In this document: one piece after another, positions 1-39,489 of the stretch
Layout: each line of letters starts with the position of its first letter
Position numbering within the stretch: the first letter of the stretch is position 1
Virus record (IMG/VR): IMGVR_UViG_3300033120_000845
Span: 1-64,000 of that record
Strand: one strand, 5' to 3'
Source of the DNA: a virus
Lineage: Duplodnaviria; Caudoviricetes
DNA: 64,000 nt
Notes under the pieces: model-generated
What the model was told of the DNA's origin: nothing
What the model saw: only the letters and a program-made list of their open reading frames with translations
Database searches by the model: none
Program-made: the position numbers and the translations under genes

Positions 1-68
1 AATCAGTCATAAACCGATACTTTATGCTTCCTTAATCCGCCACATCGCCAAGTTGCGAACCGTTATAA
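1..68 (+). mobile_element. attC-like hairpin site S0 (right arm only, truncated by window start)
   Basis: CGCCAAGTTGCGAACC-GTTATAAG resembles the right arms of S2/S3; GTT at 62-64 overlaps the TAA stop of the 63..707 ORF. Confidence 0.7.
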
Positions 69-707
69 GCAAGCTGCTACGTTCCTGCTCCGAATGAAAG
101 TTCCCCATTGTTCAGCCATACTTTTTGCCACTCCGCTAAAAGTTTTTGAGCTTTCCTTTTGACTTATATTTACAAATTGGTATTTCTGCCCTCGTTTCTT
201 ACCTCCTGTATTGCTCGGTAAATACGGCTTATAGTTGCTTTTAATGTCAGTCGGTTTTAATAGTGGCAAATTTTTCAACCACAATAAAGTTCTTTTGCTG
301 TATTCGTGTCCATATTCGTATGGCTGTATCGCTTGGCTATGTTTTGGCAATTCAACCACTTTTAAAGGCGTTGGATTTTCAATAGCAATATATTCAATAG
401 GTGCGTTAAGTAGTTTCAAAAACAAATCCTTCGCTTCCATTGCCTTTGCATATCTATCTTGGCACAAATTACCTGCCGTTGGATACATCCATCTTGCTCC
501 AGCCCTACTCATATAAGTACAAGGTGGGTGTGCAATCATCATATCATATTTACCACTATAAGCCTCTTTTACTGCATCTCCTACAATATGCCATTCAGGT
601 TTACCACCGCTACATTCTTGTAGGTCGCAACTATAAGCATCAAATCCTAATTCTCGGAAAGCTCTGCAAACTTCTTGGCTCTCCTCACAAGCTATTAATA
701 TTTTCAT
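63..707 (-). CDS. C5-cytosine DNA methyltransferase-like protein (phage type), cassette 1
   Basis: N-terminal SAM-binding-like ILIACEES, catalytic HPPC, ENP motif, C-terminal KTFSGVAKSMAEQW. Confidence 0.75.
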   Translation of the reverse strand: MKILIACEESQEVCRAFRELGFDAYSCDLQECSGGKPEWHIVGDAVKEAYSGKYDMMIAHPPCTYMSRAGARWMYPTAGNLCQDRYAKAMEAKDLFLKLLNAPIEYIAIENPTPLKVVELPKHSQAIQPYEYGHEYSKRTLLWLKNLPLLKPTDIKSNYKPYLPSNTGGKKRGQKYQFVNISQKESSKTFSGVAKSMAEQWGTFIRSRNVAACL

Positions 708-744
708 TTCAATTTAAGTTTTTCGTTAATAATCCGCAGCCAGC

Positions 745-842
745 TTATAACAGCGGTTTTGTGCTATTTGCCCATCAATATTTGTGGTAAACTTGAAACT
801 TTGTGCAAGGGCAAACAGACACAAAGCCGCAAAACGTTATGT
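745..842 (+). mobile_element. attC-like hairpin site S1
   Basis: TTATAAC-a-GCGGTTTTGTG..TTTGCCC-loop-GGGCAAA..CACAAAGCCGC-aaaac-GTTATGT. Confidence 0.85.
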
Positions 843-870
843 GAGATTGCTCCAAATTGATTTCATAAGA

Positions 871-1428
871 CTATTTCGCCATCAAATCGGCTAACTCTTT
901 TTGCTTTCTAATAATTTCTCTTTGTTTAAAATCTTCTTTGTTCAAATCATAATATTTTTTTATAATTGAATCGTAATTATTAAACACTTCTTTTGCGTTT
1001 TCTAATTTAAAGTAAAGGCTTTTGTTTGCGCTATCACAATAATCAGGATTAAACGATTTTAATTCAAAAAAGAATTTTTCAAAGAAAATAGTTGGATAAT
1101 CCCCACCAAAAATATATGCTCCAGTAGGATAACTAAATTTAATAAGTCTTTCTCCTTTTGGTTTTTTACCATTATCCTCCCAGCTTATTGTTGTTCTTTC
1201 GCTATCAATAAAAGTTAGATGTACATTGTTTTTCAATTCTTGATACTGAATGTTATTTATTCTTTTTTCGTCAATTTCAAGTCCGTAAACCTCTTTTAAT
1301 TCCAATCCAAATAAATGGTTATTGGCTTTTAATTCTAAATCTTGAAAATCAAAATTTAATAAATCTTTGTTCTTTTTAGCGATTTTCAAAATGCTGTCAT
1401 AAATCTTTTTTGTTTCTTGTAATTTCAT
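871..1428 (-). CDS. hypothetical protein, cassette 2
   Basis: 185-aa ORF filling the space between S1 and S2. Confidence 0.8.
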   Translation of the reverse strand: MKLQETKKIYDSILKIAKKNKDLLNFDFQDLELKANNHLFGLELKEVYGLEIDEKRINNIQYQELKNNVHLTFIDSERTTISWEDNGKKPKGERLIKFSYPTGAYIFGGDYPTIFFEKFFFELKSFNPDYCDSANKSLYFKLENAKEVFNNYDSIIKKYYDLNKEDFKQREIIRKQKELADLMAK

Positions 1429-1457
1429 AACGTTTAGTTTTAAAAACCCACAACCTC

Positions 1458-1590
1458 ACATAACAAGTGTTTGGCAAAAAAGCGGGTTCGGTTATTAATT
1501 TAAAATCTGTTTTGTGTCTTTATAATTTAGGCTTAATCGAAGTTTCGGGCATTTTTAACCGCTTCTTCGCCAAGCACTAGGACGTTAGCA
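1458..1590 (+). mobile_element. attC-like hairpin site S2
   Basis: ACATAAC-a-AGTGTTTGGC..AAGCGG-loop-CCGCTT..GCCAAGCACT-aggac-GTTAGCA. Confidence 0.85.
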
Positions 1591-1596
1591 GTAACT

Positions 1597-1824
1597 TTAC
1601 CAACTAACTCGAATAAAATCGCCTTGTCTTTGGTCTAATGTTTCTTTAACATCAAATCCCTGTGCTTTTAACCATTTAACAACTAATTCATCGTAAAGGT
1701 CTGAATCAAATGTGGTTTCCCTTTTCCCGTAAGAAGCAACATTTTTTAATCTTCTTTTTATTTCTTCAAGTTTTGGGGAATTTTGACTTTCTGAAATAAT
1801 CTGCAATTCTTTAATAAAATCCAT
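1597..1824 (-). CDS. hypothetical protein, cassette 3
   Basis: 75-aa ORF ending just inside the S2 boundary; C-terminal ..VSW seen in small phage proteins. Confidence 0.75.
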   Translation of the reverse strand: MDFIKELQIISESQNSPKLEEIKRRLKNVASYGKRETTFDSDLYDELVVKWLKAQGFDVKETLDQRQGDFIRVSW

Positions 1825-1859
1825 TTTTCTATGTATGTTTTAAAAATATGTATAGAGAA

Positions 1860-1973
1860 TTACTTTTTTCTATACATTTCGATTAATAAATAAAATATCC
1901 TTCCTAATGCTAAAAGTATAAATGGAATTGTCCAAAAATATACCCAACAATTAATCTCTTCTTGTATCGACAT
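1860..1973 (-). CDS. small hydrophobic peptide (37 aa), cassette 3
   Basis: Manually translated MSIQEEINCWVYFWTIPFILLALGRIFYLLIEMYRKK; ATG lies just inside the cassette end; below ORF-track cutoff. Confidence 0.4.
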   Translation of the reverse strand: MSIQEEINCWVYFWTIPFILLALGRIFYLLIEMYRKK

Positions 1974-1982
1974 AAAAGCTAC

Positions 1983-2077
1983 TGCTAACAAAGGTTTGGC
2001 GCAATAAAGCCACAACCTTCTTATTAATATTCTTGTTTTTCTAAGGCTTTACTTCGCCAAGCCTCTGGACGTTATAA
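1983..2077 (+). mobile_element. attC-like hairpin site S3
   Basis: TGCTAAC-aa-AGGTTTGGCG..TAAAGCC-loop-GGCTTTA..CGCCAAGCCT-ctggac-GTTATAA. Confidence 0.85.
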
Positions 2078-2088
2078 ACAATAAATAA

Positions 2089-2235
2089 CTAATCTTCGTC
2101 TATATCGTTATGAAATAAATATTCGTCTGTTTCGCAATCAGGACAATTTCCATCTATTAAATCTTCACTGTCTAAAAAAGAATTACATTGTCTACAAATA
2201 AATTCTTTATCTTTATAATCTTTACTAAATCCCAT
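2089..2235 (-). CDS. 48-aa zinc-ribbon protein, sole gene of cassette 4
   Basis: Manually translated MGFSKDYKDKEFICRQCNSFLDSEDLIDGNCPDCETDEYLFHNDIDED (CxxC...CPxC); fills the cassette. Confidence 0.7.
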   Translation of the reverse strand: MGFSKDYKDKEFICRQCNSFLDSEDLIDGNCPDCETDEYLFHNDIDED

Positions 2236-2246
2236 TTTTTTACTGT

Positions 2247-2379
2247 TTATAACATCGGTTTTGCTCTATTGCGGTTTAGTGCTTAACCAATCTTCGGTTT
2301 GTGTTTGTTAATTTTGTTTTTTAACTCAATAATTTAGGATTACTTTTCCGCAACAAAGCAAAGCCTCGAAACGTTATAT
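2247..2379 (+). mobile_element. attC-like hairpin site S4
   Basis: TTATAAC-atc-GGTTTTGCT..TTGCGG-loop-CCGCAA..AGCAAAGCC-tcgaaac-GTTATAT. Confidence 0.85.
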
Positions 2380-2389
2380 GAGATTTATT

Positions 2390-2593
2390 CTAAACTTGGG
2401 GCACCCAAACTAAATTAATAAAATCTGTTTCAAACCCTTCGCTTTCAATAATAGAAACAAAATCATCCTTTACAACAACTTTATAAAAATCAAAGTTTTC
2501 ATTTAAGTAATCCTCTAAATCTTTATGATTATTTGCAACTAAAATAATATCGTTACAAAAATTTCTTTCGTATTTAAACAGTAATTTATTCAT
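2390..2593 (-). CDS. hypothetical protein, cassette 5
   Basis: 67-aa ORF filling the space between S4 and S5. Confidence 0.7.
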   Translation of the reverse strand: MNKLLFKYERNFCNDIILVANNHKDLEDYLNENFDFYKVVVKDDFVSIIESEGFETDFINLVWVPQV

Positions 2594-2614
2594 ATTTATA
2601 TAAATTTAAACCTC

Positions 2615-2748
2615 ATATAACAGCAGTTTTGCGCAAGTGGCAGTTTGTTTTATGCCTGTTATATTTCGGCTTGGTTAATAATTATTTTTTATTTGTTATC
2701 ATTGTTTTTAAATCGTGCCACCTTCGCAAAGCTGGCAACTCGTTATCC
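2615..2748 (+). mobile_element. attC-like hairpin site S5 (right end of array 1)
   Basis: ATATAAC-ag-CAGTTTTGCG..GTGGCA-loop-TGCCAC..CGCAAAGCTG-gcaactc-GTTATCC; GTTA overlaps the stop of a 24-aa minus-strand ORF (2743..2817). Confidence 0.85.
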
Positions 2749-2834
2749 TATAAAAGAAAAAGTAATTAGTCCCACTAATATAATAACTCCTGCTAAAAAT
2801 GTTTTTCTACAATACATATTATTTTATTTTTTTA

Positions 2835-2866
2835 CAAATGTATTAATTATTTATTTGATGTGCAAA
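2835..2866 (-). promoter_or_regulatory. Bacteroidota sigma70-type promoter pointing into cassette array 1
   Basis: Minus strand TTTGCACA-N16-TACATTTG matches the -33 TTG / -7 TAnnTTTG consensus. Confidence 0.7.
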
Positions 2867-2884
2867 TGTTTTCTCTGTTTTTTT

Positions 2885-3148
2885 TTACCTTTTTTCGCGC
2901 AAAAATTCCAAATTTAATTGTTCTACAAAAGCAAATAACTCTTCTTTTTCTTCCTGAGAAGGTTTTCTCCAATGAGAGAAGATTTTTAAATCTGCTTCTA
3001 TTAATTTTTTTTGCGCCCAAATTGACAATTCTTCGCTATGTTGTCCATATTCTAATTTTATTAGTTTAGGTTGAATCTTAATTGCATTCTGTTCTCCATG
3101 ATAAAGAGAAACACTTCTTGTATATAGATTTACTGCGAATCTTGTCAT
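2885..3148 (-). CDS. hypothetical protein
   Basis: 87-aa ORF in a co-oriented, tightly packed gene run. Confidence 0.6.
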   Translation of the reverse strand: MTRFAVNLYTRSVSLYHGEQNAIKIQPKLIKLEYGQHSEELSIWAQKKLIEADLKIFSHWRKPSQEEKEELFAFVEQLNLEFLREKR

Positions 3149-3154
3149 GTTTTT

Positions 3155-3502
3155 TTATTCAATTAGTTTTCTAATTCTTTGAGCTTCTTCATAGTCTTCG
3201 TTTTCTAAAGCCTTTTTAAGTTTTAGTTCAAGAGTGTACTTATCATATAAATTTGTAAATAAGCTTTCCGGCTCTGTATAATAGTCCCACCCATTTTGCC
3301 AAATATCAAAAGCAACTTTAATTAACTTTTCTTCTCTAAACATTCTTATATAAGATTCCTCTAAATTTTTCAAATATATCATCCCATTTGCTACTCCAAT
3401 AAATTGTAACTTATCTCCAATATAAGAGCGGTCTCCATATCCATCTGATGGGCTCACCCTTGTAATAAAACTACCTTTTTCAATTTCTATTATATTTTTC
3501 AT
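3155..3502 (-). CDS. protein with C-terminal UVR (UvrB/UvrC) coiled-coil motif
   Basis: LELKLKKALENEDYEEAQRIRKLI. Confidence 0.7.
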   Translation of the reverse strand: MKNIIEIEKGSFITRVSPSDGYGDRSYIGDKLQFIGVANGMIYLKNLEESYIRMFREEKLIKVAFDIWQNGWDYYTEPESLFTNLYDKYTLELKLKKALENEDYEEAQRIRKLIE

Positions 3503-14508: not shown

Positions 14509-14545
14509 TTGCGTATATATATATATAATAATTACCTGCAAGTGC
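14509..14545 (+). mobile_element. left junction of cassette 6 (half-site resembling one arm of terminal site SD)
   Basis: TTGCGTATAT(AT)n AATA-ATTACCTGCAAGTGC; the last 15 nt are complementary (11/15) to GCACCAACAGGTAAC at 15520-15534. Confidence 0.6.
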
Positions 14546-14561
14546 TACATTGGTGCTTTGA

Positions 14562-15467
14562 TTAAACATTTTCATTAGAAAAATTATTAAAAATTTCCCC
14601 ACCTTTTAAAAAAGAAAAAATATGAGCAATCACATCAACAGTCCACCCGTTTCCTATTGCTTTATATCTTTGCGTGTCGCTGAAACCAATTGTGTAATCA
14701 ATTGGTAGAGTTTGAAGTATTTCACATTCCTTTGGTGTTAATCTTCTTAATATACCGTTGGATTCTACAATCTGCCCTTCTCTACTATTACTATTATTTT
14801 TGTAATATGTTGCAAACAAACATTTAGATTTATTAGCAACTAAATCAAACCCTTGTTTTTCCCTTACTCGTTCCACAGCACGTTCTGTTAAATAATACTT
14901 TTCATCAACATCGGTTTCAATTATATTTCTAAAATCCAAACCTAAATCAATGGGTTGTTTTACATTCGGTATATTAGTCCAATACAATCTATTACGTCTT
15001 TGATGGCTTAATAATGCTGAATTTATCTTTATAGGTTTTACCCCCAATGCTTCTGAGATTAAATCCTCCCATTCTTTTTTCATTACAACATTTTCAAGTA
15101 AAAAGTATTTTGGTTTAGTTTCATTTAAAACTCTTACATATTCCCAAAATAAACCACTCTTACCTTCAAATCCAACCTTATCACCCATTTCTTCACGATA
15201 TAAACCCATTGTACTAAATGATTGACAAGGTGAGCCACCAATAAGTAAATCAATTTTTGGTAATTCACTTGCTTTTACGTCCACTACACTTCCTATATGT
15301 TTTGTATTTGGGTAATTCCTTTTACACATCTGAATTGCATAACCATCAATTTCAGAAGCGAAATAGTTTTCAATACCAATATCTGCTCGTTCAAGTGCAA
15401 TTTGTCCGCAACTAATACCATCAAATAATGATAATACGTTTATTTTTTCTTTTTTGCCTACGCTCAT
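14562..15467 (-). CDS. dcm: DNA (cytosine-5) methyltransferase, cassette 6
   Basis: Motif I LSLFDGISCG, motif IV GGSPCQ, motif VI ENV, motif VIII QRRNRLYW, motif X IGNGWTV. Confidence 0.92.
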   Translation of the reverse strand: MSVGKKEKINVLSLFDGISCGQIALERADIGIENYFASEIDGYAIQMCKRNYPNTKHIGSVVDVKASELPKIDLLIGGSPCQSFSTMGLYREEMGDKVGFEGKSGLFWEYVRVLNETKPKYFLLENVVMKKEWEDLISEALGVKPIKINSALLSHQRRNRLYWTNIPNVKQPIDLGLDFRNIIETDVDEKYYLTERAVERVREKQGFDLVANKSKCLFATYYKNNSNSREGQIVESNGILRRLTPKECEILQTLPIDYTIGFSDTQRYKAIGNGWTVDVIAHIFSFLKGGEIFNNFSNENV

Positions 15468-15527
15468 TTTTAATAATTTTTTGTTTAGTATTTCAATTTA
15501 AGTTTTCCGTTAATTAACCGCACCAAC

Positions 15528-15657
15528 AGGTAACACGTGCTATAAGCAATAGCGGGTTCTGTGCTATCCGAAAGTTTCTGCTGTTTATTATCGTTTGTCA
15601 TAATTTGAAAGTTCTTTGTTATTAATCCGCTACTGCTCATAGCACCATACGTTATCT
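15528..15657 (+). mobile_element. attC-like hairpin site S6
   Basis: AGGTAAC-ac-GTGCTATAAGCAATAGCGG-loop-CCGCTACTGCTCATAGCAC-catac-GTTATCT; GTTA overlaps the stop of ORF 15652..15846. Confidence 0.85.
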
Positions 15658-17777: not shown

Positions 17778-17911
17778 CGCTAACGTTTTGTGGCTTTATG
17801 AAGTTGCGTGCCTCCAAAACAGCCGTTAATAAATTTTTTCTTTTCTTCCCGCACGCACGGAAAATTCCAAACACACCCTAAACAAGCAATTTCATAAAAC
17901 CTCTGTTAGCA
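17778..17911 (-). mobile_element. attC-like hairpin site SA (inverted relative to S0-S6)
   Basis: CGCTAAC-gttttgt-GGCTTTATGAAGTTGC-loop-GCAATTTCATAAAACC-tct-GTTAGCA; its reverse complement has the S1-S5 architecture. Confidence 0.85.
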
Positions 17912-18487: not shown

Positions 18488-18620
18488 TGCTAACGTCCCG
18501 CCAGCTTTGTGAAGGTGCAATTTTCACTCACTAACGATGGATTAATAATTAATTTTTATTCTTGCACCAAAACTTTAAATTAAACCTTTAGTTGCACTTT
18601 CACAAAACTGCCTGTTGTGC
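18488..18620 (-). mobile_element. attC-like hairpin site SB
   Basis: TGCTAAC-gtcccgc-CAGCTTTGTGAAGGTGCAA-loop-TTGCACTTTCACAAAACTG-cct-GTTGTGC. Confidence 0.85.
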
Positions 18621-19598: not shown

Positions 19599-19732
19599 GC
19601 ACAACGTCCATAGGCTTTGTGTCAGGTGGCGCGAACCAACACAGACCTCTCTGATTAATAATTATTTTTTAATTGCGCCAAAACTTTCCAAATATTCCTT
19701 TAACCGCCACTTGCACAAAACCTTTGTTGTAC
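19599..19732 (-). mobile_element. attC-like hairpin site SC
   Basis: GCACAAC-gtccat-AGGCTTTGTGTCAGGTGGCG-loop-CGCCACTTGCACAAAACCT-tt-GTTGTAC. Confidence 0.85.
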
Positions 19733-20393: not shown

Positions 20394-20490
20394 GTACAAC
20401 TTGTAAATATACGCATTGCGCTTTTTAAATATATCTCGGTTTTATTGAATATATTTACTTTTGTGCATTGCGTATATTTTTTTGTTAATA
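20394..20490. mobile_element. terminal hairpin site SD (distinct class; candidate attI-like primary site)
   Basis: GTACAAC-ttgt-AAATATACGCATTGCGC-loop-GTGCATTGCGTATATTT-tttt-GTTAATA; symmetric spacers; 7 nt from the groES stop. Confidence 0.7.
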
Positions 20491-20747: not shown

Positions 20748-22238
20748 TTACACTACACTTATAATTCTTGTATTAATAATTAATTTTGCCACAGACACTG
20801 CATTTTCTAATGCCACTCTCAAAGATTTTTTAGCATCAATAATTCCTGACTTTCTATAATTTACAACTTTTTTAGTTTTAATATCATAAAGTTGTCCATA
20901 TCTGTTAATTTGACGAATCGCTTTTTCAGCTTCTACATCACCATTAGTTAAAATCTGCCTGAAAGGTTCACAAATAGTGTCTAATAAAATTTGATATCCT
21001 AAATCCTTTTTATTTTTACCACTTAATTTTTTAGCAATCGACAGCATAGTTGCTCCACCTCCTGCTACAAACCCTTCTTCAACAGCACACTCTAAAGCCC
21101 TCTTAGCATCATCAAAACGGTCAAACTTTTCTTTTCTTTCCGAGTCTGTTTTTCCTCCAACATAAATTGTAGCAACACCATTCTCTAAATTAGCAATTCG
21201 CTTTTCAATAAAATCTGTTTTTTCTTCAACTTGCTTCAAAGAACTCAAATGTTCTAAACTTTTTTCATTTAATTCTCTCTGAATAATGTAAGTGCGGTCT
21301 TTTGAAACTATCACTTTATCTGCTGTCCCTGCGTGAATTACTTTTGAAACTCCCGGAACAAAAACCTCCGCACCTGTATAAAAAGCAATGTCTTGTAAAA
21401 GCTGTTTTCGTTCTTGTCCAAACTCAGGGGCTTTAATAACACAAATATGTCTTCCTCGCCTGTGAATATTTACAATTGCATTTAAAGCGTCCTCAGAAAT
21501 GTCTTCAACAATTAATAATAAGGGGCTTGAAGAGTTGGTGATAATTCCGTCAACTAAATTAGAATTAGAAAGACCCAGACTATTTTCAAAAATTACAATC
21601 TCTACATCTGTTTCATCAAAAGTTAAATTGCTTTCTTTAGTTGTTAGAAATGGCGAAACATATCCTTTCTCGATGTTCATACCTTTAATAACTTTCATTG
21701 TAGTTGTTGGAGAATCTGCTTCAATTACATCCACAATATTTGCATTATCAAAGGCTTCAATAAGCATTTCAGAAATTTCTTTATCACCATTGGAAGAAAT
21801 GTAAGCAATATCTTTTAAATTGTCTTTATCTGCATCCTCTGCTAAATTGTTAAGTTCTGAAATAACATCCGTCATTGCTCTATCAACACCTTCAATTATT
21901 TCTCGTGGAGTTGATAAATCTTTAGCCTCTAAACTCTTTTTAACCAAAGCCTGCGCAAAAACTAATGAAGAAGTTGTATTATCCCCCGCCTCCGTAACAG
22001 TTTTTACCGCCACTTGTTTAGCAAGATTAGCTCCCATCTGCTTTTCTTTCCTAATTACTTCGTCTTCATCATTGAAAAATATTGACTTACAAACAGAAAC
22101 ACCATCTTTAGTTGCAGAAACAGTTCCTAAATGCCCTTCAATCATAGCAATTTTTCCTTCCCCACCTAAAGTAAGTTTTGTAGCATCGCAAGCCACATTA
22201 AATCCAAAAATTAAATTACTATTATCTAATGTCGTCAT
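20748..22238 (-). CDS. groEL: chaperonin GroEL (phage-encoded)
   Basis: TLGGEG, TKDGVSV, AGDNTTSS, KAPEFG, GFVAGGG, GIID..K motifs. Confidence 0.95.
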   Translation of the reverse strand: MTTLDNSNLIFGFNVACDATKLTLGGEGKIAMIEGHLGTVSATKDGVSVCKSIFFNDEDEVIRKEKQMGANLAKQVAVKTVTEAGDNTTSSLVFAQALVKKSLEAKDLSTPREIIEGVDRAMTDVISELNNLAEDADKDNLKDIAYISSNGDKEISEMLIEAFDNANIVDVIEADSPTTTMKVIKGMNIEKGYVSPFLTTKESNLTFDETDVEIVIFENSLGLSNSNLVDGIITNSSSPLLLIVEDISEDALNAIVNIHRRGRHICVIKAPEFGQERKQLLQDIAFYTGAEVFVPGVSKVIHAGTADKVIVSKDRTYIIQRELNEKSLEHLSSLKQVEEKTDFIEKRIANLENGVATIYVGGKTDSERKEKFDRFDDAKRALECAVEEGFVAGGGATMLSIAKKLSGKNKKDLGYQILLDTICEPFRQILTNGDVEAEKAIRQINRYGQLYDIKTKKVVNYRKSGIIDAKKSLRVALENAVSVAKLIINTRIISVV

Positions 22239-28952: not shown

Positions 28953-29963
28953 CTATTCTTCTGTTTCTTTTTTAGTTTTTTCAGCGATTTCAGATTTTAA
29001 GTCCTCTAATAAATCAGGGTTATCAAATAACATTGGTACTAAATTATCAATACCCTGTACTATAGTCGTACCCTTATAGGTAACCCAACTACCCTTCATT
29101 TCTAAAATTCCTAATCTTTTTGCGGAAGAAGCTACGTCTGCTTCAATAGTGTAACCCATTCCGTAGGTGAATTCAACGGATACTTCTCTGTTTACAATCC
29201 CTACTTTATTTTTAGTACACTTAATACGTACCATATTACCTTCAACAATTTTATCTTTATTTCCAAGATTACCTTTTTCATCTTTTTCTTTTTTAGATGA
29301 TTTGAATAACTCTAAAGTTAAAGAGCTATTGTGATGCAAACTTCTACCTCCCGGAACAACTGTGTCTGGACTGTATTTATTAGCTTTATCCATATTATCT
29401 CTGACTTGAGATAAAATAATTAAAGTAGTGTTGTATTGGTTACATAAACCTATTAAAATTGGTAATTGGCTGGATAGAACGTTGGCGCGGTTTGCCATCG
29501 TTTTTTCACCTGCTGTTTTTTGTAATTGTTCTCCACTCGCAGAGTTATTAATAGAATCGACAATAATAACATCATAGTTAGGAATTTGTTGCCTGATTAC
29601 GTCACACATTAATTCTGTTGTTTCAGGAATAAAGTGGTCAAATTTTGAAGGGTCTGCACCCAAACTTTCTAAATAATCAGTTGTTAGTGTAGCTTCTGTA
29701 TCTGCATATAATATCCTGTCCCCTAATCCTTCTGCAATTTGAATTGTTAATGAGCTCTTACCCGCACTTGGTTCTCCTGCAAATAATACTAACCTGCCTT
29801 TTGGTATCCCACCATCAGTTACCCAATCAATACTTGGTCTACCTGTTAATGATTTTTCTGCATATCTTGGATTTTTCTGTAAATTAACTATAGCTCCACG
29901 AGCATATAAAAAATCTACTTTTTCAAAAGTTTTATCTAATCCTTCGTCTTTTTTCTTTGCCAT
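28953..29963 (-). CDS. recA: RecA/UvsX recombinase
   Basis: GGIPKGR, GEPSAGKS, DTE, IIVDS, SQVRD, PGGRSL, KNKVG; start placed at MAKKK (29963). Confidence 0.93.
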   Translation of the reverse strand: MAKKKDEGLDKTFEKVDFLYARGAIVNLQKNPRYAEKSLTGRPSIDWVTDGGIPKGRLVLFAGEPSAGKSSLTIQIAEGLGDRILYADTEATLTTDYLESLGADPSKFDHFIPETTELMCDVIRQQIPNYDVIIVDSINNSASGEQLQKTAGEKTMANRANVLSSQLPILIGLCNQYNTTLIILSQVRDNMDKANKYSPDTVVPGGRSLHHNSSLTLELFKSSKKEKDEKGNLGNKDKIVEGNMVRIKCTKNKVGIVNREVSVEFTYGMGYTIEADVASSAKRLGILEMKGSWVTYKGTTIVQGIDNLVPMLFDNPDLLEDLKSEIAEKTKKETEE

Positions 29964-36892: not shown

Positions 36893-39489
36893 ATAAATTT
36901 ATAAAACAGCATAAAGAGTATTTTAAAAGAAATGCTACTGCTATTGAAAGCAACTATTGGGATAAGGACGAAGAACTCGTAAGAAAAGTAAAATTATTTA
37001 AGCAAGAGAATAGCCTTACTACATCTATTGTTGGAAGATTGTCAGCATTTATAAAAATAGCGGAAGCTGATAGAAGATTACCTAAAACTCAAAAATTCAT
37101 AGAAGAAACTTTAGATATAATAAACATCCACATAAAAAAATGTGATAATTATTTAGATTATAAACTAGATGAGTTGATAGAATCAACAGACGATACTGAT
37201 GAGGAAATTGATTTAAAAACTCAAGAGATTGCCTTCCAAGATGATGTATTTAATCAGAAAATTGCAATACAAGATAAATTAGATTCTTTAAATCTTAAAA
37301 GTGAACCCGATGATTTAAAATTTAGTTTTTTCAGCGGACAAATAGCGTCACTACCAATGTCAGAAGTATTGACAGTTGTTAATAATGATATTAAAGAAGC
37401 AACAGACTCATTAAATTTAGCTAAAGAAATAACAGACAAAACTTTTTATAAGGATTTATTAGAGCAAGGAAAAGTTCCTCAATGGAATGAAAAAAAACAT
37501 TATTGGGAACAAGATAAAGAAACTTTAGCTTTTTGGCAAAACGAGTGGTTGAAAATAAAATATGGATTTGAGGTGGATGGGTATTTTATTCACCCTTGGT
37601 TATATTTTCACATAAACTTTTTTAAAACTCCAATTCCGCAATCTGATGGTTCTGAACCTATTGTGAGTCCTGATTTCAGAGATAATGAGTGGTTATTTGT
37701 TGAAGAAATAAAAAGAGCAGAAGAGGCTGGTAACAGAGGGGTTATGCTGTATGGAAGCCGCCGTTTAGGTAAATCTACACTAATGTCTTCTTATTGTTAT
37801 TGGAAAGCACTCACTAAACCAAATGCCTCTGCGACAATTACATCGGGGTCTGAAGGAGATTTGATTGACTTAACGCATAAGATAAAAACTGCTATGAAGT
37901 ATATACCAAAAGCATTTTATCTTTATATTCAGAGTCAAGAATGGTTAGGTGGGTCTGTTGAATTAGGATTAAAAACAACGGCAAGTAACTTAGTAGAGTA
38001 CTCAAGATTTAATATAAAAAACTTAGCAGGTGGTACAACTAAGGCTACCCAAAAGACTGCGGGTGGAGCTCCAAGTGTCTTCTTAATTGAAGAAATTGGA
38101 AAATTCAATTGGAAGAAGTCGTTTTTAGCAGCTAAACCATCTTTTGAAACAAAAGACAGATGGAAGTGTGTACCAATTGCTGTAGGTACAGGAGGAGAGG
38201 CTTCATTATCGGGTGATGCTATGTTAGCTTTATCAAATCCAAAATCTATGCATTTTTTAGAAATGGATTGGGATACTTTTGAATCTAAAATACCTGAAAA
38301 AGCAATTAGTTGGACAAGAAGAAAGTTTGCCACATTTGTTCCTGCTCAGATGTCATATAAAACAAATCTTAGGAGTATAAAAAGACCTTTTGGTGAATTT
38401 TTAGGGATACAGTCGGAAGAATTAGATAAAATTACAATATTTCAAGCTGATTGGGAGCACAATTTAAAAGTCTTATTAGAAGATAGAGATTTAGTAAAAG
38501 GTGATTCATTATTAGCACAACAAGAAGCTGTACAATATCCAATTGACCCGGAAGAATGTTTCCTGAGTTCAGAATCTAACCCATTCCCTTATGAAGAAGC
38601 AAGAACACATAAAGAATATCTACAGGCTACAGGTAAATGGGATAGAAGAAGGGAATTAATAAAGAACTCTCAAGGTAAGATAGAGGTACGATTATCAACA
38701 AAGGAATTAGTTGAATTTCCTTTTAAAGGTGGAAATCAAGATGCACCTTATCTTATTTTTGAAGACCCACCAGAAGAGAAACAAAGCAGATGGACTTATG
38801 TTGCATCAGGTGACTTTTATAAGCAAGAAGGTTCGGCTACAGAATCAGTGGGTACAATTTATATTTATAAATATGACCTATTTGATGACCCATTTGCTAA
38901 AAAATTAGTTGCCTCTTATTCAGCGAGACCTAAAACATACAGAGAATTTAATGAAAAAGTATTATTATTATTGGAAGCATATAATGCAGTAATTTTCCCA
39001 GAAAATGAAGATTTAGGTGTGTTCCAAACTTTTTTGGAAAATAAACATTTAGAAGATTATCTTGTAAAACACATTGATTTTAAAACAGCTTTAGATTTTA
39101 CAGAAAATGGAATTAGAAAATATGGATGGACTGCCGCACAATCTAAATCTAAATTAATAGCAATGTATGTTAATTATTGTAATGAGACAGTTAAAATTAT
39201 AAATGATGAAGGTATTGAAGTAGAAGTTAAAAGAATTCAAACCATTGATGATATTTGGCTATTAACAGAGATTATGAATTTCTCTTCTACTGGGAACTTT
39301 GATAGGATTTCAGGTTCACTTGGAGCAATTGGACTGTTACACGTATTGGAAAAAAACTATATTTATCCAAAACATGTAAAAAAACGAAGAGAAGAAAAAG
39401 AAGGAGAAGAAAAACCCAAAGACCGAACAAAAACTTTCTATGGAATGTCAAGCAGAAAAGCAGGTTTTTATTCAGGAAGAAGGCGTTAA
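36877..39489 (+). CDS. terL: terminase large subunit
   Basis: Walker A GSRRLGKS, Walker B LIEEIGK, GTGG coupling motif, nuclease GDFY/EN/GNFDRI; upstream of portal. Confidence 0.9.
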   Translation: MSERIDKFIKQHKEYFKRNATAIESNYWDKDEELVRKVKLFKQENSLTTSIVGRLSAFIKIAEADRRLPKTQKFIEETLDIINIHIKKCDNYLDYKLDELIESTDDTDEEIDLKTQEIAFQDDVFNQKIAIQDKLDSLNLKSEPDDLKFSFFSGQIASLPMSEVLTVVNNDIKEATDSLNLAKEITDKTFYKDLLEQGKVPQWNEKKHYWEQDKETLAFWQNEWLKIKYGFEVDGYFIHPWLYFHINFFKTPIPQSDGSEPIVSPDFRDNEWLFVEEIKRAEEAGNRGVMLYGSRRLGKSTLMSSYCYWKALTKPNASATITSGSEGDLIDLTHKIKTAMKYIPKAFYLYIQSQEWLGGSVELGLKTTASNLVEYSRFNIKNLAGGTTKATQKTAGGAPSVFLIEEIGKFNWKKSFLAAKPSFETKDRWKCVPIAVGTGGEASLSGDAMLALSNPKSMHFLEMDWDTFESKIPEKAISWTRRKFATFVPAQMSYKTNLRSIKRPFGEFLGIQSEELDKITIFQADWEHNLKVLLEDRDLVKGDSLLAQQEAVQYPIDPEECFLSSESNPFPYEEARTHKEYLQATGKWDRRRELIKNSQGKIEVRLSTKELVEFPFKGGNQDAPYLIFEDPPEEKQSRWTYVASGDFYKQEGSATESVGTIYIYKYDLFDDPFAKKLVASYSARPKTYREFNEKVLLLLEAYNAVIFPENEDLGVFQTFLENKHLEDYLVKHIDFKTALDFTENGIRKYGWTAAQSKSKLIAMYVNYCNETVKIINDEGIEVEVKRIQTIDDIWLLTEIMNFSSTGNFDRISGSLGAIGLLHVLEKNYIYPKHVKKRREEKEGEEKPKDRTKTFYGMSSRKAGFYSGRRR

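Follow-up and report, generated by a model that had tools for sequence, protein, structure and literature searches.

Integrons are known from bacteria; they pair a tyrosine recombinase gene with a simple adjacent entry site, from which an array of single-gene cassettes extends. Classical integron integrases read extrahelical bases via the IntI insertion. To our knowledge, phages have so far yielded only integron fragments or attC clusters without an integrase, and a literature search turned up no phage integron run by a non-IntI enzyme. The attC clusters (CALINs) were described in virulent phages, for example Polaribacter phage P12002L; no integrase was found for the P12002L arrays, which were treated as bacterial integron fragments (Qi et al. 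2023, PMC9892861). In the same work, IntI1 recombined the P12002L array-start region at G|TT, and IntegronFinder called one P12002L hairpin. A second kind of phage cassette, the PeSL cassettes of T4-type phages, carries a promoter and a terminator and recombines by homology (PMC2839356, PMC4122927).

Here, we analyzed a window of 64,000 nucleotides (positions 1 to 64,000 of IMG/VR record IMGVR_UViG_3300033120_000845) from the 132-kb genome of a phage of Bacteroidota. By a virion structural protein, its closest isolates are Cellulophaga phages phi4:1 and phi17:2 (40% identity); the crAss-like and lytic labels given earlier are putative. At its left end lies an array of hairpins and genes (Table 1) that a preliminary description had read as integron-like mobile cassettes. 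We put at roughly 80% the probability that this array belongs to a phage-borne integron-like cassette system, whose hairpin sites are recombined by the phage's own 275-aa recombinase. The site family, the pairing of cassette ends, the adjacency of a recombinase gene, and the breakpoints between sister phages all support the cassette reading, and those checks suggested in the preliminary description that were run all favored it. The six hairpins described in 1-2748 were found in place, five as full AAC..GTT sites and one as the partial site S0, and the intervals between them do hold short genes with little spare DNA, all on the minus strand. The stop codon of the cassette 1 methyltransferase sits within the GTTA core.

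Table 1. Hairpin sites and genes of the cassette arrays in the window (R1, covariance model)
Feature	Position	Strand	Basis or remark
S0, partial hairpin site (right arm, cut by contig start)	1..64	+	GTT at 62-64; arm matches family (repeat families D1, D6)
Cassette 1 gene, 214-aa DNA methyltransferase	63..707	-	phrog_757, E 3.7e-49
Hairpin site W1 (AAC..GTT)	749..838	+	R1, 76.4 bits; pairing
Cassette 2 gene, 185 aa	871..1428	-	No family match
Hairpin site W2	1462..1586	+	R1, 110 bits
Cassette 3 gene, 75 aa, no function assigned	1597..1824	-	phrog_3012, E 1.6e-10
Uncertain 51-aa ORF after cassette 3 gene	1860-2015
Hairpin site W3	1987..2073	+	R1; 96% identical copy at genome 131843-131929
Cassette 4 gene, 48 aa, two Cys pairs	2089..2235	-	No family match
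Hairpin site W4	2251..2375	+	R1, 127.7 bits
Cassette 5 gene, 67 aa, no function assigned	2390..2593	-	ORF list, family searches
Hairpin site W5, last of the array	2619..2744	+	R1
Solo cassette (hairpin 15532-15653)	14532..15653		R1, 71 bits
C5 cytosine methyltransferase gene in solo cassette	14562-15467	-	PF00145, E 2.7e-42
Inverted-array hairpin	17782..17907	-	R1, 68.2 bits; ends pair with next site
Inverted-array hairpin	18492..18616	-	R1, 51.9 bits; end pairing
Inverted-array hairpin	19603..19728	-	R1, 64.3 bits; end pairing
Atypical near-symmetric hairpin bounding inverted array	20398..20487		Read from sequence; missed by R1

Sites in the window array share one order of parts: TAAC, 3 nt, stem, variable loop, stem, 7 to 8 nt, and GTTA (6 to 8 nt on the GTT side in other arrays). 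Sites of the family are arranged head to tail and are 87 to 128 nt long; as in classical integrons, the cassettes are bounded by imperfect inverted repeats with AAC...GTT ends, and site length varies while structure, but not sequence, is conserved. The covariance model (R1) identified 16 sites in the genome, including a six-site array that directly adjoins the only recombinase gene, as well as arrays in other phage contigs. Default filters missed real sites in contig L006 and in P12002L and were switched off. Across a 12-site alignment, 95.1% of pairing cells could pair (35 to 42% with partners slid), 14 of the 15 inner-stem pairs were altered on both sides in a compensatory manner, and none of 500 shuffles reached the observed scores, indicating that the hairpins are one structural family. 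The third stem pair was T.G in 11 of the 12 sites, in line with the wobble proposed earlier. The view that the loops are unrelated was only partly right, since 1503-1535 and 2310-2342 are 76% identical. Single-strand fold energies were only modestly better than those of shuffles (z -0.6 to -3.3), and taken alone they are weak evidence for hairpin sites. The comparison with attC gave a mixed outcome: the sites have the fold and the AAC/GTT cores, but the only fixed core bases are TAAC/GTTA, the 7-nt consensus cores fit some sites only, and the spacer asymmetry is reversed, with the longer spacer on the GTT side. The phage sites also add a conserved A.C mismatch at position 11 (A at +11 after GTT in 33 of 33; C at -11 before AAC in 29 of 33).

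The bases that flank these sites connect one site to the next. We compared the six variable bases after GTTA with those before the next TAAC in 26 cognate pairs from five contigs, using 1063 noncognate pairs as the background. On average, 5.35 of 6 bases matched in cognate pairs versus 1.99 of 6 in noncognate pairs, and matches of at least 5 of 6 bases occurred in 23/26 and 22/1063 pairs, respectively. The proposed complementarity of the tail after GTT to the bases before the next AAC, rather than to its own hairpin, is thus far above chance. As in integrons, what follows G|TT is part of the next cassette, whose R' and R'' are complementary. The GTTA flank of W5 had no partner among the candidates listed by a genome-wide scan, and no hairpin follows W5; searching the genome for inverted six-base ends that lack hairpins proved too noisy to use (34 matches versus 20 to 31 in shuffles). 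For the inverted array, the flank of the atypical bounding hairpin complements the GTT flank of the R1 site at 19603-19728.

Conserved structure in transcribed regions between genes could also denote structured RNAs or transcription terminators, with incidental end complementarity. We consider this very improbable. Against Rfam, the whole window had no match that reached a gathering score, and a search of 1-3000 relaxed to E values of 10 gave chance-level matches only; no T-run terminators were found, and reading the gene-sense strand turns the conserved wobble into a C.A mismatch. Moreover, the end pairing reaches across whole genes, and neither the link to a recombinase nor the homology breakpoints described below have an RNA explanation. 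Hairpin elements of the IS200/IS605 or REP/RAYT type depend on a Y1 HUH transposase that acts on hairpin ends, and the genome has no match to PF01797; no serine recombinase was detected in the genome either.

The preliminary description reported no integrase in the window and supposed it to be encoded elsewhere in the phage or borrowed from the host. The former proved correct: the enzyme is neither absent nor host borrowed, and the search for a tyrosine recombinase beside an array led to an Xer/IntI-like gene (275 aa; genome 101470-102297, outside the window) adjoining the second array of the same phage. Arg131, Lys156, His220, Arg223, His246, and Tyr255 are invariant in 15 family members, and we read them as the putative catalytic set. 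The protein scored below both integron-integrase cutoffs (TIGR02249, 165 bits in two stretches versus 265; PRK15417, 83 versus 435 bits). Relative to VchIntIA (2a3v), 20 residues of the protein stand in place of 62 in IntI, such that the IntI-specific insertion of ∼40 residues is missing. Xer models also scored below cutoff (archaeal XerA, 206.8 versus 220 bits; XerD, 166.9 versus 329.6; XerC, 156.2 versus 335). In the tree, the recombinase fell outside the IntI clade and outside the Xer clade (support 100/100 for each). Model scores and tree placement thus assign it to neither IntI nor XerC, XerD, or XerA, and the family forms a clade of its own; more than 2000 relatives were present in the protein collection at E ≤ 1e-30. 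Xer-dependent elements offer a partial parallel. CTX phage has a folded single-strand attP and Acinetobacter plasmids carry pdif modules, both systems using host XerC/XerD and 28-bp dif-like cores. The phage system resembles them in its Xer-type recombinase and in a proposed folded single-strand site or small modules bounded by recombinase sites, but its enzyme is element encoded and its sites are 87- to 128-nt hairpins arranged head to tail.

Beside the recombinase gene lies a simple hairpin-less junction, as expected for an attI-like entry site. At all 16 loci read, a hairpin-less core (mostly TAAC) is followed by a conserved AT-rich motif ∼50 nt before the recombinase start codon. In 11 of 13 testable loci, the six bases next to the junction are complementary to those preceding the first hairpin (one of the 11, L016, was realigned by eye). 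Hairpins occur just upstream of related recombinases (49 to 100% identical), in one fixed orientation, at 13 of the 15 loci with enough upstream sequence. Two viral contigs have in common with this phage only the recombinase and ∼30 to 60 nt upstream, at both the DNA and protein levels. Peptide-pattern scans with the 160-aa neighbor gene and the virion structural protein found no close backbone relatives in viral contigs, so sister phages were compared in another clade of recombinase-bearing phages. Four such phages are ∼90% identical through the recombinase and the downstream backbone; their homology stops exactly at the junction AAC/GTT, and the cassettes beyond are unrelated. These are the GTT breakpoints that cassette exchange predicts, and the conserved platform with variable cargo is a further likeness to classical integrons. 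Almost no cassettes were common to different arrays in DNA and protein all-against-all comparisons, beyond methyltransferase and Mom motifs. Cellulophaga phage phi4:1 yielded a single weak covariance-model match, and the array start at genome 131361 is without the conserved junction motif.

These loci also bear on whether the arrays might be integrase-less attC clusters served by a classical integron integrase of the host, with the phage recombinase acting in dimer resolution or lysogeny. Such integrases are common in the phylum of the MAGs carrying relatives, where 90 of 301 sampled genomes exceed the TIGR02249 cutoff; the window array has no adjacent recombinase; P12002L has arrays but no annotated integrase; and IntI1 recombined its array-start region. 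Against this, the 1.5-kb surroundings of 12 classical integrase genes contained no family hairpin, and recombinase, junction, and array occur together in 13 of 15 loci whose surroundings all differ. In addition, the one family hairpin tested, from P12002L, did not recombine with IntI1 (PMC9892861), which fits a dedicated enzyme but also leaves recombination of family hairpins a prediction. Service by a host integrase is therefore quite improbable. P12002L hairpins match R1 only weakly (16.8 to 44.6 bits); nevertheless, they have the same spacers (3 versus 6 nt) and end pairing, and the P12002L arrays likewise start hairpin-less and carry methyltransferase and Mom-like cargo. Unlike in the P12002L work, a dedicated recombinase family and an entry site are identified here.

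Gene polarity sets the phage arrays apart. They begin hairpin-less at GTT beside the recombinase and finish with a hairpin, and every array gene points at the junction and thus at the recombinase gene, so that hairpins precede their genes on the 5' side. The hairpin of the second array holds the start codon. Antisense polarity had been anticipated, and it is the opposite of classical integrons, where genes read away from attI, a promoter in the platform drives their expression, and attC is 3' of the gene. By family matches (Pfam labels), the cargo is rich in DNA methyltransferases and includes a Mom-family protein and an RNA ligase, and the arrays are accordingly most likely an exchangeable store of counter-defense genes. 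Judged by its two Cys pairs, the cassette 4 protein is a possible zinc ribbon.

Hairpins 5' of genes could instead be regulatory modules (leaders, promoters, or terminators) resembling PeSLs, with genes shuffled by homologous recombination between hairpins and the recombinase uninvolved. PeSLs mediate shuffling and minicircles in T4-type phages (PMC2839356), and in both cases small accessory genes sit between repeated stem-loops, within plastic parts of a large phage genome of lytic type, with a link to shuffling. The start codons within hairpins of the second array fit this proposal, as does the far wider spread of the hairpins, loops included, relative to the cassette genes (wastewater and river metagenome contigs). 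W3 and its 96% identical copy likewise stand between unrelated genes on both sides. However, homologous exchange leaves unexplained the cassette-specific six-base end complementarity, the hairpin-less junction fixed beside the recombinase, the sharp homology break at AAC, and the left end of the solo cassette, which is A|TTA rather than G|TTA. In a scan covering sigma-70-like rather than Bacteroidota-type promoters, region 1-3200 contains no terminator-like sites and no promoter excess (14 versus 14.1 expected), and hence not the strong early promoter plus terminator stem-loop that defines PeSLs. The phage array further differs in its recombinase, its single set point of crossover, and end pairing particular to each cassette, and we regard regulatory modules as an unlikely explanation.

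Recombination by the phage enzyme, our preferred reading, would proceed as follows. The mobile unit would consist, on the plus strand, of TT, a gene on the minus strand, TAAC, the hairpin, and G, making W1 part of cassette 1. The 275-aa recombinase most likely recombines hairpin sites with each other and with the hairpin-less entry site, probably acting on folded single-stranded DNA. Its substrate would comprise an outer duplex (TAAC/GTTA, the A.C mismatch conserved among sites, and six cassette-specific pairs), an internal loop with unequal sides (3 nt versus 6 to 8 nt), an inner stem with the conserved T.G pair, and a free loop. On excision, the circle would restore the outer duplex in full, which would explain why the bases after GTT complement those before the next AAC. 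Crossover between G and TT, as in classical integrons, is suggested by two observations. First, the left end of the solo cassette, at 14531, complements the pre-hairpin flank save for its first base. Second, the cassette 1 methyltransferase has a paralogue (92.8% identical; genome 131926-132413) whose homology begins at position 61, at GTT, while the left-hand hairpins of the two cassettes differ. Several findings weigh against this mechanism: the recombinase lacks the IntI insertion used for extrahelical bases, the unrelated neighbors of W3 and its copy cannot be explained by a single crossover point, the array start at genome 131361 has no junction motif, the one family hairpin tested failed with IntI1, fold energies improve only modestly on shuffles, and, with crossover at G|TT, the spacers are asymmetric in the mirror image of classical attC.

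A recombinase, its own entry site, and arrays together in a phage would imply cassette capture operated by phages themselves, and the cargo suggests its use in swapping anti-restriction and RNA-repair genes. We lean slightly toward a broader view, in which a separate integron lineage native to Bacteroidota phages uses a minimal tyrosine recombinase that lacks the IntI domain, together with a mirror-image geometry (hairpins upstream of genes, where they may supply start signals) to maintain a counter-defense gene bank shared by unrelated phages. If so, metagenomes would hold hundreds to thousands of such platforms. They would provide a natural experiment in how a tyrosine recombinase recognizes folded DNA without the IntI domain, and recombinase, junction motif, and hairpins would serve as a simple genomic marker for mining new counter-defense genes from viral metagenomes.

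Metagenome contigs (Logan) contain joints from 66 to 1460, 849 to 1430-1439, and 768 to 2247; these have short sides or unknown inserts, are ambiguous, and were not counted as evidence of excision. Contig depth in unrelated metagenomes peaks at W2.

The preliminary description had proposed an integron-like cassette system, a claim borne out by site structure, pairing of cassette ends, linkage to a recombinase, and breakpoints among sister phages. We regard the array at the start of the window (array 1) as part of an integron-like system that is real and well supported, has reversed geometry, and comes with a new family of recombinases. Its five complete hairpins and one partial hairpin lie where they had been placed. 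On the plus strand, the sites in array 1 consist of TAAC, 3 nt, an inner stem, a variable loop, the inner stem, 7 to 8 nt, and GTTA, compared with a GTT-side spacer of 6 to 8 nt in other arrays. We evaluated this structure in an alignment of 12 sites, all from the phage genome (a single viral contig of 132,413 bp, whose first 64 kb form the window). In this alignment, the proposed structure paired in 95.1% of cells versus 35 to 42% with slid partners, both sides changed in 14 of 15 inner-stem pairs, and no shuffle reached the observed pairing scores. A T.G pair was third in the stem in 11/12 sites. Fold energies by themselves were modest (z of -0.6 to -3.3). No terminator-like features were found at the hairpin array, and an Rfam search of the sites returned no match. 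Scanning with a covariance model, as had been suggested, here built from the same 12 sites, detected 16 sites in the genome (see the table) as well as related arrays upstream of recombinases in other contigs.

Hairpin sites detected in the phage genome by covariance model
Feature	Location	n	Method
Hairpin sites, array 1	window 1-2748	5	covariance model
Solo hairpin site	15532-15653	1	covariance model
Inverted hairpin sites	17.8-19.7 kb	3	covariance model
Second-array hairpin sites	102.6-106.7 kb	6	covariance model
Further hairpin site	131.8 kb	1	covariance model

The key point of the preliminary description, that the bases following each GTT complement those preceding the next AAC, held over 26 cassettes from five contigs: cognate ends matched at 5.35 of 6 variable positions, compared to 1.99 of 6 for non-cognate ends. 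Position +11 after GTT was A (33/33) and position -11 before AAC was C (29/33), so that the duplex, once restored, contains a conserved A.C mismatch. Because end pairing is symmetric, it cannot set polarity. Next to the recombinase, arrays open at a GTT that lacks a hairpin, and their last element is a complete hairpin. In the solo methyltransferase cassette, a hairpin is present on one side only, and the opposite end is A|TTA, as expected if the G is the target's and the TT is the cassette's. In addition, the methyltransferase cassette at 63-707 is matched by a paralogue with 92.8% identity at the opposite end of the contig; the two are homologous from position 61, and the hairpin to the left differs. 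Taken together, the hairpin-less starts, the A|TTA end, and the homology from position 61 point to a mobile unit composed of TT, gene, TAAC, hairpin, and G. By this scheme, the cassettes of array 1 would span 63-836, 837-1584, 1585-2071, 2072-2373, and 2374-2742. The hairpin lies 5' of its gene and genes read toward the entry site, reversing classical integron polarity, in line with the earlier remark that the genes appear antisense to classical cassettes. Given this unit, the spacer asymmetry is the mirror image of that in attC, the classical cassette hairpin site. Consistent with this, the software of Qi et al. oriented the hairpin of Polaribacter phage P12002L opposite to its array-start site (PMC9892861).

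The integrase had been predicted to be either encoded elsewhere in the phage or borrowed from the host, and the genome contains one tyrosine recombinase (275 aa; 101470-102297, minus strand), outside the window. Neither a serine recombinase nor a Y1 transposase was present across the genome. The recombinase gene directly adjoins the six-site second array. A GTTA core without a hairpin, ∼50 nt upstream of the start codon, opens the first cassette, and the six bases following this GTTA complement those preceding the first hairpin. The protein does not reach the cut-off of any of the XerA, XerD, XerC, and integron-integrase models. Comparison with VchIntIA gives 20 residues for the 62 in IntI, the classical integron integrase, which means that the insertion specific to IntI is absent; a C-terminal Ser-Pro-Leu tail is common to both proteins. 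A maximum-likelihood phylogeny was computed for 35 sequences: 16 members of the family, 12 classical integrases drawn from genomes of the phylum to which the Saprospiraceae metagenome-assembled genome (MAG; see below) belongs, one IntI from a Shewanella phage, four Xer proteins, and two integrases of flavobacterial phages. In this unrooted tree with small sampling, the recombinase family grouped as a separate clade (92/66), distinct from those of IntI (100/100) and Xer (100/100), and was joined to IntI weakly (71/64). Six residues were invariant in 15 family members, and in our reading these would be the catalytic set, with Tyr at position 255. A 27-bp motif immediately upstream of the recombinase start codon (genome 102300-102326) recurs with 26/27 identity at 131308-131334, upstream of an 82-aa gene beside an integrase-less array start; this copy may be the remnant of a duplicated platform.

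Relatives of the recombinase numbered >2000 at E <= 1e-30 and, among the matches listed, were nearly all 275 to 279 aa. We examined 16 loci: the phage genome, two IMG/VR contigs, six Logan, ENA, or NCBI contigs, and seven MAG contigs (Ginsengibacter, Saprospiraceae, Parafilimonas, Chitinophaga, Ignavibacteria, and others). Every one of the 16 had a core without a hairpin (mostly TAAC), and a conserved AT-rich motif followed it at a constant distance from the start codon. Where upstream sequence sufficed (15 loci), 13 had family hairpins upstream of the recombinase, always in one relative orientation, and the ends of the first cassette paired in 11 of 13 testable loci (one realigned by eye). 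The phage genome and the two IMG/VR contigs had only the recombinase and ∼30 to 60 nt upstream in common at the DNA and protein levels. The suggested comparison of sister phages gave a sharp boundary: four of them (L022-L025) share syntenic backbones ∼90% identical (recombinase, DNA polymerase exonuclease, and ribonucleotide reductase), and their homology ends exactly at the junction AAC, 53 nt before the start codon, with unrelated cassettes beyond. Of 301 genomes sampled from the phylum of the Saprospiraceae MAG, 90 had classical integrases scoring above the TIGR02249 cut-off, indicating that host integrons are common there. No family hairpins were found within 1.5 kb of 12 of these classical integrase genes, which speaks for an association of the hairpins with the phage recombinase.

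Integrase-less attC clusters have been reported in virulent phages, including P12002L (Qi et al. 2023, PMC9892861). The P12002L hairpins match our covariance model weakly and have the same architecture. Of the sites named in that study, "attC1," a P12002L hairpin of this architecture, did not recombine with IntI1; "attC2," which is the hairpin-less array start, recombined with IntI1 at G|TT (PMC9892861). A 77-bp sequence precedes both hairpin-less P12002L array starts (29172-29248 and 37198-37274; copies 97% identical), and this repeat region is that tested as "attC2." Among the papers searched, none was found to describe the recombinase, the entry site belonging to it, or a reversal of polarity. 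The nearest phage analogue is the PeSL stem-loop cassette of T4-type phages, and PeSLs work by homology (PMC2839356).

We infer the recombination mechanism of the hairpin cassettes; no excision product was seen in the contig-level metagenome data. The hairpin at 1987-2073 and its 96% copy have unrelated neighbors on both sides. With contigs of unrelated wastewater and river metagenomes, coverage was far higher at hairpins than at genes: the bin at 1401-1600 had depths of 634, 204, and 125 in three runs, compared to roughly 0 to 6 for cassette interiors in unrelated runs. This higher coverage indicates that hairpins move or persist independently of genes, which requires a second point of crossover, events on the opposite strand, or exchange by homology.

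Cargo in the phage genome includes two phrog_757 methyltransferases, a C5 methyltransferase, an N6/N4 methyltransferase split into two open reading frames (ORFs), a Mom-family protein, an RNA ligase, and unknowns. Other arrays carry MT-A70, N6/N4, and C5 methylases and a pyrimidine-dimer glycosylase (precomputed Pfam labels). These family names suggest a role in counter-defense. The RNA ligase cassette (PF09414; genome 104822-105568) is consistent with repair of tRNAs that host anticodon nucleases have cleaved. In the last second-array cassette, ORFs 105693-106085 and 106148-106714 match the C- and N-terminal parts, respectively, of the N6/N4 DNA methyltransferase family, and hence a frameshift or a decaying cassette is likely. 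Cassette ORFs 102349-102702 and 103555-104193 start inside similar hairpin loops, so that the recombination site in the second array is also coding sequence; their first 24 residues are 67% identical, and the ORFs are otherwise unrelated. Two different methyltransferase cassettes share, at 91% identity, a 33-nt leader that separates the start codon from the hairpin (706-738 versus 15490-15522).

The contig is linear according to IMG/VR, with a CheckV-estimated completeness of 92%. The labels "crAss-like" and "lytic" in the preliminary description were not established; a virion structural protein shares 40% identity with its counterpart in Cellulophaga phages phi4:1 and phi17:2 (genus Lightbulbvirus), which makes a Bacteroidota host probable. 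The contig ends (window 61-548 and genome 131926-132413) are 92.8% identical copies of a methyltransferase cassette. The contig may represent a circular or terminally redundant genome broken within a tandem cassette duplication, in which case array 1 and the array starting at genome 131361 would be one array. Translation of a 496-aa ORF (window 20748-22238) suggests a GroEL-type chaperonin.
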